Origin: Podarcis liolepis
Lineage: Eukaryota
Direction: 5' to 3' (one strand)
DNA: 64,000 nucleotides
Assembly (NCBI GenBank): GCA_965112155.1
Contig: OZ218103.1
Under the pieces are notes generated by a model that was not told where the DNA came from, searched no databases, and saw only the letters and a program-made list of their open reading frames with translations. The position numbers were made by a program, and so were the translations under genes. Position 1 is the first letter of the stretch; each line of letters opens with the position of its first letter. Shown in pieces: positions 1,856 through 7,800 of the stretch.

Positions 1856-4800
1856 CTTTAAACACAAGATAGAGTGGCACTATTAATATGCATCTAAATT
1901 ACAGTACAGTGGTGCCTCGCAAGACGAAAAGAATCCGTTCCGCGAGTCTCTTCGTCTTGCGGTTTTTTCGTCTTGCGAAGCAAGCCCATTAGCGGCTTAG
2001 CGCTATTAGCGGATCAGCTGATAAGCGGTTTAGCGGATCAGCTGATAAGCGGCTTAGCGGATCAGCTGTTTAGCGGCTTGGGAAAGGGGGGGGAGGAAAA
2101 AAACCCCCGCAGGAACTCGCAAGACATTTTTGTCTTGCGAAGCAAGCCCATAGGAAATTTGTTTTGCGAAGCACCTCCAAAACGGAAAACCCTTTCGTCT
2201 AGCGGGTTTTCCATCTTGCGAGGCATTCGTCTTGCGGGGCACCACTGTACTTTAACATACCAGCATGCAGACATTCAGTAGTGTTTTAACATTTTAGTTT
2301 CTCCAAATCCTAAAGCGTTAATTGACTTGTGTGCATCTCAGCGTATACTTTCATATTATAGCTTCGTCTTGCAGTCAGCACTTAAGCTATTGCCTGCATC
2401 TACACACTTTGGTATCGTCGCTGCAAACAATGCGCAGAGCTAGCACAGCCTGATCTGTTTCTAGTCAATAAGGACCAAGGGCACTTGTAAAACTCCCTAG
2501 TCCCTCAAACCACGGGGGCGGGGGCAGTACCATGCTGCCAGGACTGTGGGAGGTTAACTTTGGATGCAAGGAAAGGGAAAAAGATGGAATCATGTATGTG
2601 GTTATCCAGTTAGTCCAACCAGCATGAAGCTAGGTGGAAAGTTATGAACACACCTCTTCACCTTCTACTTGGTGAGCTGGTGCATGGAGCAATGCCACAA
2701 CCAAGTAACCATCCAGTTGCTGACTAGAGTTTGACAAATTAAGCCATATCAGAACCAGATAATCTGAAAGTGAAGCACGCTTTAGAAATCGCTCTTGCAG
2801 AAGCCTGGCACCCCAGTCCCCAACACATCTACAAAATCAGCACAACTGATTTCAACAGAGTGCGATTATGAGCACGTTCATTCAAGATAGCAGTCAAAAA
2901 AAGGAATCTTCCAATTTTGACACACTGCGTTTTCTAGGATAAGAGAATAGACTCAGGAGAGAGAAACGATTCCCCACATTCATATCACCACACACACACA
3001 CACACTAGATTACAGCCATGCAATCTTACTCTGCCTGGACACGCAGTTGATAACTTGTGAAGAGACTGTGCAAGATGGATTTTAGGATTGTTCACAATTT
3101 GGCCCACTGGATCGTGTTCTTTTTTCCCAGCAAAGGCAAGCTGGGAGAATGCAGTTTGGTACCCTGGCGTGTCTTCTATATCAATGAAGTGTTCTTCGTC
3201 AGGAAGGGTATCATCTTCAGGCAACTCAAAGAGACCAATGAGGGCCTGAAGAAGGGGTGTCCTGTGGAGAAAACCTTTTATTTAATGGACTTATTTGTTG
3301 CTCGCTGCAAAAGAATCTAAGCAACTTACGAAAATTAAAATCTTAAAGGCGTAGCACAAAAACAATATGTTACAGCAAACCATTTCAAACCACCACAGAA
3401 AACAGCCAATTTTCAGCAGCAGAATATTCCTTAGGCAGAGGACTACCTGGATCTAGTTATCAGAGCCAGAGCAGAAACTGGCAATGGAATGGCACAAGCA
3501 TTCAGAAAAACTGGAAAAAGCCTGTCCATACTCTGGCTGTTCTTCTATTTTGGACGGTGTCCAAGGAAAACAATGTACTTGCTCTTGTTTCCATTATGCT
3601 CCATACATTTATTTGTTTTCCTTATAATTCATATTTCCTCTACAATATAACCACTGCCTTGGTATAAATGCCCCTGGAACTGTTGCTGCCAAATTCATTG
3701 ATATTGTTATAATTTGGCTATTATTGGAGGAATATTGGAAAACTACTAACAACTTATTTGGAACGGTTCCTGCCGGGAACACTTCTTACTGACAGCTGCA
3801 CTCCAGCCCACCTTCTGCTCACACAAGCATTCAAGCTCTAGTAGTAGATAGGTAGCCGTGTTGGTCTGCCATAGTCAAAATAAAAAAATTCCTTCCAGTA
3901 GCACCTTAAAGACCAACTAAGTTAGTTCTTGGTATGAGCTTTCGTGTGCATGCACACTTCTTCATACCAAGAACTAACTTAGTTGGTCTTTAAGGTGCTA
4001 CTGGAAGGAATTTTTTTATTCAAGCTCTAGTCACTCCTGCTCCTGACTTGGCAATGTGGATTTTATTATTATTGTTGTTGTTGTTATTTGTCTTAATCTA
4101 GAACAGGAGAACTTATATCTTATTAATACTTTTGCTCCCTGACTAAGGTGCATGGGAAAACCACTTTCAAAAGAGGAATATACAACCAAACCTATTGCTT
4201 CTCAAGTGCTAGGTGGGGACAGTGAATGGTGGACACAAAACAAGCAGAGGGCTTAACTGCTGAGGTCTTCTCCACTGATACTGACCAGAAGCCCATATTA
4301 ACAACACATAATGCGCTAACATATTCTGGTTACATATCATTAGTAAACTTCATTACTCTGAACTATGCTAAATTGCATGTGCTTCCTGACCTCACACACA
4401 CATATTCTGCAAGATTTGTATCCTGAAAACACTGTCCCTAAACTGATCCCCTAAATTCTTTCAGACACAGCAAGATTGAATTCTCACCCCCAAGTTGGAA
4501 CTCTTATCCTCTTATTCCTAACAACACAGCATATTTTGGCCAGCACATTTTCAAATCTTTTTTGAAATAGGAATGGAAGCAATGGAGGGAGGGAGAGGCC
4601 AACAGAGAGATTCCTTCCTTTGGCAAATATCTCTGTTGCAACTGTTTAAGCAAAAACTAGCATATTCCCTGGGTAAGATAGAAATCTTTTTTTAAGAGAG
4701 GAATTTCTTCTTCATCCTTAGAAGTTCTACCTTTCAATAATAAACTTTATCAAAGAAGTAACTGCACTTACCACAGCTTTGTGTATTCTGTGTCCATCAT

Positions 4801-7800
4801 AGGAGGGCATTCTGTGAGTATTTTTGTGATACCAACGGCACAGATTTTCTTTTCTACTTGCCCAGATACTTTCTGTATTTCTGGTATTATGATTTTCTCT
4901 AAAACCATTCCAAACATCCTGTTAAGTGCCAAAAGAAACCCATTTAATCTTGCAGTATCCACCTAATGCATTTATTGGGTCAAGTACAGATAATTAGAGA
5001 GGCTAGAGATCCATTGACTCAGAAATCTGAACACAAATCAGGCAGACCACTGAGCATTACCAAGGAAATGGTGTGTTATGAGTTCCTGGCTTAATCAGTA
5101 TACCATGAGAGAAGAGCATTAAGAGGCCTCAACATTTCTGACTGAACAGTGACAGAGAAAAGGTGCCAAATCCAAAAAGTACCAAATTATAAGGGCATAC
5201 TTAAGAGTTTGCTCCTGAGCCTTCCTTTGCCATCTTGAATTAAAGCTGCAAGTGCAAACAAAGAATCTTCCTTTGCAGCCAAAGTAGTTATATTATTATT
5301 ATTAATTAAATTTGTATGCCACCCTATACCCGTAGATCTAAGGATAGATAGATAGATAATACTTTATTCGGCTATAAGCCCACCAGGTAAAACCAATCGG
5401 TAAATAAAATAGCATTTTACATTTTAAAATATCAACCAAAATATTTCAACGCATAATCTCCTTCACATTACACACAGTTTCTAGATGTACCATATTGTGG
5501 CCTTGAATATAAAGATGGTGGATAGAGTTTACTAGATTTTAATAGTCATGCAGCATTCCATGAAGTCTTTTATATGAAAGAACAGAATTCAGGAATCTTG
5601 CAACCTGTAATGTTCTATAAGAGTCAATGTCCTGGAGTAGATAGGCTAGATGTAATTCAGGTGGTTTAGCAACAGTTTCCAAAATGATTGAACTCAGAAT
5701 CCTTGATCGGGGAACAATATATAAAGGACAATTAAACAAGATATGATGAAGGGATCTAAGGACAATTCACAGCCTAAACAACTTTTCAAAAGGGTGATTG
5801 CTCCTGGTTCTTCCTCTACAGTTTGCCACCTTGAATTAAAGCACATAACTGTCAGGCCTTTATTGCAAGATGACACCAAATTAATTATGAAGTCTAGCCA
5901 CTTGTGAGGGGATCACTTGGTTTTGCTGCCCTAGGCTTTGCTGGGAGGAACGGTGGGATATGAATTTAATAAATAAACAAACAAATAATATATTTTCATA
6001 TTCACTTTCAGCTCCGCTGCCTTCTTCCTGGGAAACAGAATGATACCTGAAAATACAGCTATCAGTTATCCCTAGTATAGCCTGGTGCAGTCAGTGTGGT
6101 ACAGTGGCTGCAGAGCTGGATTAGACCCCCGGAATACCAGGGTTCAAATCCCCATTTGGCCATGAGGCTCACTGGGTGGCCTTGGGCCATTCACCCCCTC
6201 CCAGCCTAACCTACTTCACAGGGTTGTTGTGAGAATAAAATGAGGAGCAGGAGAACTGAGATGAAAGGCAGGATAGAATTGTAATAGTAAGAAACAGAAA
6301 GAAAACTAAAAAAGAAAAGAAAAAGATACTAACTTTGGCTGTATACTGTCAAATATTTCTTGAAGTGCTATTGCTCCGTATCTTACACAATACAAGTTGA
6401 TAAAGACTAAGAAACCTATTAAAAGAAGAAGAATGAATCAGAAGCTGTAAAAGAGCACGTATAACAGTATTAATATGTGTCTCTCTCTTCTATAAAATCA
6501 CAGTGAATAAGCATCTGTATCTTTCCTGCTATCTGTCGACAAAACTTCTTTGCTGGTTTCACAGGGTCTCTAGGACCCACCTGGCAAAGCTGTTATGCAG
6601 AGGGACCAACTCCATCACAAATCCCCACCAACCCAGCTCTTATACTAGGTAGGCACAAAGTTCAAGCTTCAATGAATATTCCTCTCTTTGCCTCCAAATC
6701 CTGTTACTCTGACCAATATGCCCTTTACAGTGGTACCTTCGGTTATGAATGGGATCCGTTCCGGAGTCCCGGCTGTATCCCGAAAATTTCATAACCAGAG
6801 GACCGCTTGTGCGCACGTGCGAGCGGCAAACCTACTTCTGGGTTTGCCACGGCCGTAACCTGAACGTTACGCAACACAAGGTACCACTGTATTGCCATCT
6901 TTGAAATCAAATCAAAAGACAAGTGATGATTGTTCTGATCCAAAGCATACTAAGCCCCTCAGGGCAGAGTTCTTCCCCAAATCTATCAGCCATAAAACAA
7001 ATAGCTTACTTTTGATAAATTTTGTTGTTTTGGAATTCTGAAGTCTTTGGAATAACAGGATGAAAATTTGTTTCCTGTACTGATCAATGGATTCACTAGA
7101 AAGACAAAAATACGTTGAAACCGGTTAATCAATCCAGTAGGCCATCTGAGTGTACTATTTCTTAACTTTCTTTTGGCATATTTTGAGTACATCCGATGGG
7201 AGATCTACAATAATGCAAGCTAATAGCAGCAAAATTACTTGAATTTGGTATGTTCATACTCACGGGGGCATATGTTCTATAATACTGTTGAGAAGGTAGA
7301 ATCCTTGATGGTCATTAAGTTTAGAGGCAATAAGTTTCTGGAACACACCCAAAAGTCCAGGCTGTAAATTAAGGAAAACACAAAGTTTTGCATTGGCCTC
7401 CACAGTCACAGCAGGCGCTGCAACGTTCCAACAGCTTGACCTCACCTCCAAAGGTGCACTCCTCTGTTGTCTCCCAAGACAGACAGATGCCAGCAAATTA
7501 TTAACAGTAAAATGATCTGGCAGCTACAAAATCTACCCAGAATGGAATTATGATGTAACTGACTACCAGAGCACAACAGTCAATGAGTCTGGGAACTGAT
7601 TTAACTCTGCCTAGTTAAACTTGCCTAGCAATGGGGTAAAAAACTGAGTTAAGATTATTCAGGAATTTCAGATCATAGCTGGGTATTCAGCAGTGCTAGG
7701 ATAGATTGAATGCACTACTGAAAAGTATTGCTTTCATGGGAAAGAAGTATCTAGCTCATCTAATAATTTTATGGCTTATGTAACTAGCTTGCATGGCTTG

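Follow-up and report, generated by a model that had tools for sequence, protein, structure and literature searches.

The 64,000-nt window (the whole stretch of DNA that was analysed) carries exons of CSE1L on its minus strand, and an insert lies in one of the introns of this gene. The minus-strand coding exons on either side of it, at 4771..4920 upstream and 3024..3260 downstream (Pfam-matched parts only), match Pfam CAS_CSE1 at profile positions 289-337 and 338-417, and RNA reads over these exons lie on one strand only and leave the intron flanks uncovered. The host intron is the second-to-last CSE1L intron as seen in the window; the name intron 23, under which it had been described, presumably follows the numbering of the human CSE1L gene.

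The insert is a 175-bp head-to-head fragment composed of two arms of a Penelope-like element (PLE), and it is bracketed by the same 14-bp sequence at 3829..3842 and 4018..4031 (14/14 matches). A contig from a relative (organism F; run X10, record 11) joins position 3828 directly to 4018, an empty site with one copy of the repeat, indicating that the 14-bp sequence is a real target-site duplication (TSD). A contig from organism A crosses the left junction into the insert. Because organism F has the empty site and organism A carries the junction, the insertion is recent and lineage-restricted.

Element positions are numbered from the first base after the predicted hammerhead cut (+1, window position 3935 on the minus strand; -1 is C17), and 3' ends are called S1 when they lie at a T-run (+45 to +66) and S2 when they lie at the end of the tail (+84 or beyond). 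In the long, tail-bearing (S2) arm, 3843..3964 on the minus strand, the pLTR runs in element sense from -29 across the cleavage site as far as the end of the tail; its one difference from an intact full-length copy is a single base in the length of the T-run. The PLE “tail” between the two preferred 3' ends occupies 3843..3878 (minus strand) and contains the first in-frame ATG of the element ORF (3872). The short (S1) arm, 3962..4020, lies on the plus strand and spans pLTR positions -2 to +57, again in element sense, ending at the T-run site. The arm ends at -29 and -2 overlap by 3 nt (3962..3964), a microhomology that links both arms; the last 3 nt of the left TSD copy also match the tail end of the element, and the first 3 nt of the right copy are common with the end of the S1 arm. 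The preliminary description of this locus had reported perfect 59-nt arms (3879-3937 and 3962-4020) separated by 24 nt, together with the 14-bp duplication. Both are exact, the arms being 100% complementary, with the correction that arms so defined take in 3 nt of the right TSD copy (4018-4020) as well as the 3-nt junction microhomology (3962-3964). The minus strand of the insert folds at -112.8 kcal/mol (z -17.95), and none of 200 shuffled sequences folded as well. A canonical poly(A) signal in CSE1L sense arises where the TSD meets the arm (4020-4015, minus strand) and is buried in the hairpin stem. Within the window we found neither a second copy of the family nor another hammerhead matching the descriptor, and a bacterial promoter scan, of no relevance here, found nothing.

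The source family and its hammerhead motif

The Penelope-like origin and inverted pLTR architecture that had been proposed for the insert were borne out: it is 98-99% identical to the pLTR of intact elements encoding a reverse transcriptase (RT) and a GIY-YIG domain, and its two pLTR arms lie head to head. This architecture is already described for PLEs, of which inverted, 5'-truncated pLTRs with a one-sided tail are called typical (PMC8557442, PMC3846280). Sequence-pattern searches of the 1.57-Gb genome yielded 15,506 occurrences of an exact 20-mer from the hammerhead core, 17,943 of a downstream 16-mer that served as the arm count, and 1,236 loci with head-to-head hairpins separated by a gap of up to 60 nt. 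Long copies continue into the GIY-YIG frame, and three fetched regions (L284-L286) contain a 926-aa stop-to-stop ORF with RVT_1 and GIY-YIG domains (PF00078, E 1.4e-11; PF01541, E 2.2e-05; both over the curated cut-off), a tandem period of 3,008, flanking pLTRs and inverted partners. L285 and L286 contain three- or four-unit arrays; the units are close to full length, vary in orientation and keep the 926-aa frame intact, which makes them candidate active donors.

The RT plus GIY-YIG ORF, the partial tandems in direct and inverted orientation and the short TSDs are the features of EN+ Penelope-like elements. A Cys-x4-Cys-x2-Cys-Cys-His stretch ahead of the GIY-YIG domain, recognized by eye, resembles a Zn-finger linker and points to the Neptune clade by the criterion described in PMC8557442. 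In common with Neptune-clade elements as described there, the family has a single ORF in which RT is followed by a C-terminal GIY-YIG domain, a Cys-rich linker, a DKG motif, partial tandems, inverted 5'-truncated pLTRs with a one-sided tail, and a hammerhead in the pLTR; the CSE1L-intron locus differs in being only a minimal 175-bp two-arm product. Elsewhere in the genome, a perfect palindromic head-to-head copy (L001:901-2415) breaks an otherwise open reverse transcriptase frame, which we take to be Copia-like. Seven arms (L117, L140, L181, L183, L198, L202 and L238) keep the downstream anchor with a different sequence upstream of +14, and probably represent a related subfamily with its own hammerhead variant.

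Reading of the minus strand confirmed the apex sequence and the hammerhead core, sense to CSE1L, that the preliminary description had reported. The motif, at 3932..3964 on that strand, is a truncated minimal type I hammerhead with the layout described in PMC4209133: a core without C3 (3964-3959) followed by an extra A, a palindromic stem II (3957-3944), GAAA (3943-3940) followed by a 4-nt palindromic stem III, and a predicted cut between 3936 and 3935 followed by the 3' strand of stem I. As had been anticipated, natural copies of the family have the intact minimal type I layout, with CUGANGA, GAAA, UH, helices I and II and the palindromic stem III. Rfam made no hammerhead call in the CSE1L-intron copy or in an intact family copy, so the assignment rests on motif layout. 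The family motif agrees in several details with the minimal hammerheads that Cervera and de la Pena (2014, PMC4209133) describe from metazoan PLEs: helix I is 4 bp and helix II long, one base is added between positions 9 and 10.1, G10.1 pairs with C11.1, and stem III is palindromic. Unlike them, the CSE1L-intron copy has neither C3 nor the native 5' strand of helix I. The same paper notes pairs of hammerheads on opposite strands, 100-700 bp apart.

The view that the core of the CSE1L-intron copy is disabled is supported, with one correction: relative to the intact family the loss comprises two bases between stem I and the core, not C3 alone. Without C3, the U-G left in the core pair into the stem with a probability of 1.0, and an open core costs 6.1 kcal/mol. 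Silencing of the ribozyme had also been offered as the reason why the insert is tolerated in an essential gene. Single minimal hammerhead motifs are reported not to cleave, and dimers to cleave at a low level (PMC4209133), and the loss is therefore not needed to explain tolerance. Among the paired arms described below, the whole core is kept on each strand in 19 of 109 pairs. When two intact copies were cofolded, the intermolecular pairing ran through stem II and not stem III. The hammerhead is cargo of the family, broken in the CSE1L-intron copy as a by-product.

Arm ends and the structure of arm pairs

The preliminary description had further proposed that the inverted arm starts essentially at the predicted cleavage site, such that the junction would record an RNA end made by the ribozyme. 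This is not supported for the CSE1L-intron copy, whose arms reach 29 nt and 2 nt past this site and meet in the 3-nt microhomology; microhomology accounts for the junction without cleavage. Among 89 arms sampled regardless of their 5' end, 78 read through the cleavage site: 11 stop at +3 or later, none from +2 to -9, 17 at -10 to -29, 35 at -31 to -38, and 26 further upstream. The frequency of arms ending at the cleavage site is therefore 0/89, with an upper 95% bound of 4%. Genome-wide counts, all made with the same filter (19 exact bases preceded by three mismatches), gave 35 ends at +6, 13 at +3, 23 at +2, 51 at +1 (44 loci once palindromic loci are counted singly), 22 at -1 and 1,485 at -36. 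The clustering of junctions at the cut site that had been predicted is thus absent from the main peak, where -36 dominates, and present as a minor, approximately twofold local peak at +1.

Just upstream of the main 5' end, the pLTR contains a TATA-like box at -67 and an Inr-like motif at -38/-37 (L286:3861-3899), both read by eye against consensus sequences. The main stop, ~30 nt behind the TATA box, likely reflects run-off at a transcription start near -36; TATA plus Inr in the pLTR has also been noted in rotifers (PMC3846280). The junction of the CSE1L-intron copy recurs at one further locus (2 among 100 listed of 137), and inspection of these 100 by eye found a 3-nt join at +7 in 5 and a 4-nt join through stem I complementarity in 11. 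Our literature search, which had subscription Penelope papers outside its scope, found no paper that maps PLE junctions to the cut site or tests shared templates; the supplements of PMC11167929 may map genomic ends.

The relationship between the two arms was determined in 120 pairs, loci fetched by several junction-biased patterns and therefore a set enriched for short junctions and not a random sample. In 109 of the 120, the two arms differ in their 3' end, one having S1 and its partner S2, which leaves the tail on one side; observed 3' ends lie at +53..+66 or +90..+100. This S1/S2 rule, when tested, held in 109 of 114 pairs versus 49% expected under independent ends (p 2e-27). TSDs of 12-15 bp flank 58 of 102 pairs, and none was found for 29 of the 102. 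Overlaps of 1-4 nt occur at 47 of 109 junctions, and most of the others carry insertions. At L106, L135, L166 and L173, short stretches of the arm ends recur at the junction as templated repeats, a pattern reminiscent of polymerase theta end-joining or of an RT that jumped repeatedly.

Paired arms also tend to share sequence variants. Downstream of the anchor, 9 variants are common to both arms versus 6 found in a single arm, and the concordance of T-run length between paired arms is 69% versus 40% expected; upstream of the anchor, 2 are shared versus 22 single, and CpG-type single changes are common there. Because variants are often shared downstream and seldom upstream, wholesale gene conversion is disfavoured, and one template or donor is favoured. 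The same-template signal could also mean one active donor locus per cell, not one molecule.

Models for the formation of paired arms

We read the insert as a recently acquired, head-to-head piece of an abundant PLE, likely produced by dual-end-primed reverse transcription on uncleaved RNA and by joining of the cDNAs at microhomology. Family membership, the empty site, the arm-end positions, the microhomologies and the S1/S2 rule are established directly, and we infer from here dual-end priming at two sites, a shared template, its start and the joining of cDNA 3' ends. Both ends of the 14-nt staggered cut would prime reverse transcription on uncleaved element RNA, with one DNA end starting at the T-run and its counterpart at the end of the tail; the arms would share an RNA template whose transcription started near -36, behind the TATA box; and the cDNA 3' ends would be end-joined, here at the 3-nt microhomology and elsewhere by way of microhomology or insertions. 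This is the best model because the pair data agree with results obtained in vitro for an Anolis PLE, in which both strands are cut and extended, two internal starts bound the tail, and uncleaved RNA is dominant (PMC11167929). That element, the Poseidon element PAc of Anolis carolinensis (Frangieh et al. 2024), is described as having two internal 3' ends around a 30-40 nt tail and a mostly uncleaved RNA template, as we propose here. Two differences emerge from the same description: the PAc ORF begins inside hammerhead stem II, whereas the first ATG of the Podarcis family lies ~64 nt after the cut, in the tail; and the in vitro reactions show no strand difference in start site, whereas 109 of the 120 Podarcis pairs use one site per arm. 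Two findings stand against dual-end priming on uncleaved RNA, namely that the same-template signal rests on recurrent downstream variants and that arm ends are in local excess at +1.

In LINE-1 twin priming, both DNA ends prime and an inverted segment is joined through microhomology inside one TSD, and the two segments are not known to overlap. The PLE pairs share with it the proposed dual-end priming, the inverted segment, the microhomology join and the single TSD, but their arms both copy one stretch; therefore either the RNA is read twice or two RNAs come from one donor. A fuller version of this scheme, which we hold at somewhat under even odds, is that one RNA, started ~30 nt behind the pLTR TATA box, would be read twice by a dimeric enzyme from two fixed internal sites, with the two ends of a staggered cut of 12-15 nt priming one reading each, and that hairpins with both arms at the cut site would reflect the minimal ribozyme cleaving in the vertebrate germ line, with cleaved RNA used in under 1% of events. 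Passages of PMC8557442, PMC4209133 and PMC11167929 treat as open how PLEs come by their inverted pLTR and tail and whether cleavage by minimal hammerheads takes place in vivo. Both questions become testable by junction counting in a family this young, which has ~18,000 near-identical arms as well as intact ORFs; these ORFs also supply a candidate active enzyme for in vitro work. The CSE1L-intron locus itself is ordinary; the junction pattern of the family is more interesting and merits a full-genome count.

Alternatively, one cDNA (or an antisense template) could fold back and prime itself, the second arm then being copied from the first, a route that has been proposed for the Penelopes of rotifers (PMC3846280). 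This reaction accounts for the shared variants and the palindromic junctions, and it fits the CSE1L-intron copy, whose tail arm exceeds the other in length and whose stem II would place the microhomologous stretches next to each other. Fold-back of a cDNA started in the tail predicts, however, that the tail arm is always longer, and in the 109 pairs it is longer in 40, shorter than the other arm in 54 and equal in 15. In those 54 the shorter arm carries tail sequence absent from the longer arm, and zero-loop palindromic joins would be hard to self-prime. That either arm may reach further led us to reject simple fold-back as the general mechanism, and we regard fold-back as unlikely for the CSE1L-intron insert as well.

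Less likely again is that the short arm was copied from hammerhead-cleaved RNA and stops at its 5' end, the extra 2 nt matching by chance. The excess of ends at +1 over +6, +3, +2 and -1 is in its favour, as are the +1/+2 ends on both arms of 17 of 50 listed shortest hairpins; yet the 2-nt match has a chance of ~1 in 16, and two different templates are required (the other arm reaches -29) for arms that tend to share variants. Among the 100 listed junctions, the 3-nt join is commoner at +7 than here (5 versus 2), and none of the 89 unbiased arms ends at this point.

Ends at +1 nevertheless form a minor class. The GAAA run is lacking from 417 arms; of the first 100 of these, 17 end at +1 versus ~4 at each other position. 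Of the 103 arm rows, we set aside 3 that came from the shortest-hairpin list, 3 indel false positives and ~7 at +14/+16 that look like another subfamily. In 50 listed of the 55 shortest hairpins, 8 of the 17 with +1/+2 ends on both arms have no microhomology (L323, a stem III join carrying a variant, is counted in neither number); symmetric joins at 2-nt palindromes number 7 at +1, 2 at +2 and 0 at -9/-8, and 10 joins lie at the 4-nt stem III palindrome. Poisson tests of the +1 peak gave p 4e-7 by arms and 5e-5 by loci, values whose significance is overstated because microhomology makes the counts overdispersed (13-35 at control positions). The +1/+2 class may correspond to cleaved templates in under 1% of arms, and is possibly a fossil of cleavage in vivo. 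Against this reading, stem I microhomology supplies part of the count and palindromic loci count twice; an RT pause at the folded ribozyme may also be the source of +1 ends. At one locus (L314:1411-1810; G000:C7 near 799,200), two arms lie head to head at +1 and are followed by two 123-bp tandem units, both of which begin exactly at +1 and have an internal tail deletion; its sequence looks like the product of repeated template jumps from a cleaved 5' end.

The idea that the hairpin is a retained CSE1L regulatory element (an editing substrate, a small-RNA precursor or a silenced ribozyme under selection) is very doubtful: a very stable dsRNA would form in CSE1L pre-mRNA, and family RNA of a related organism has strand-biased A-to-G differences, but the insert is missing from at least one close relative, shares 99% identity with intact elements, belongs to a set of more than 1,200, and has Rfam miRNA matches that all fall far under gathering scores (best, 64 bits versus 95 needed). 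The hairpin is most likely neutral in the CSE1L intron. In one raw RNA run of a related organism, of which ~12% was read, no read ties the insert to that intron and read ends do not accumulate at the cut site, although fragmented RNA-seq would not reveal such an accumulation; no RNA record was listed as containing the stretch. Across the genome, the family has scattered thousands of perfect hairpins, intronic as well as intergenic, that could engage ADAR and dsRNA sensors. Family reads in RNA of organism H, which derive from other copies and not from the CSE1L intron, have T>C at 3907 in 80 of 357 reads in one direction versus 5 of 385 in the other, and at 3918 in 92 of 343 versus 6 of 355; in DNA contigs both changes stay under 1%. 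Judged by the strand on which the CSE1L reads lie, they are A>G in element-sense RNA, and they may represent ADAR editing or one expressed variant locus. The two positions are mirrored at 3992 and 3981, in UAA and UAG contexts.
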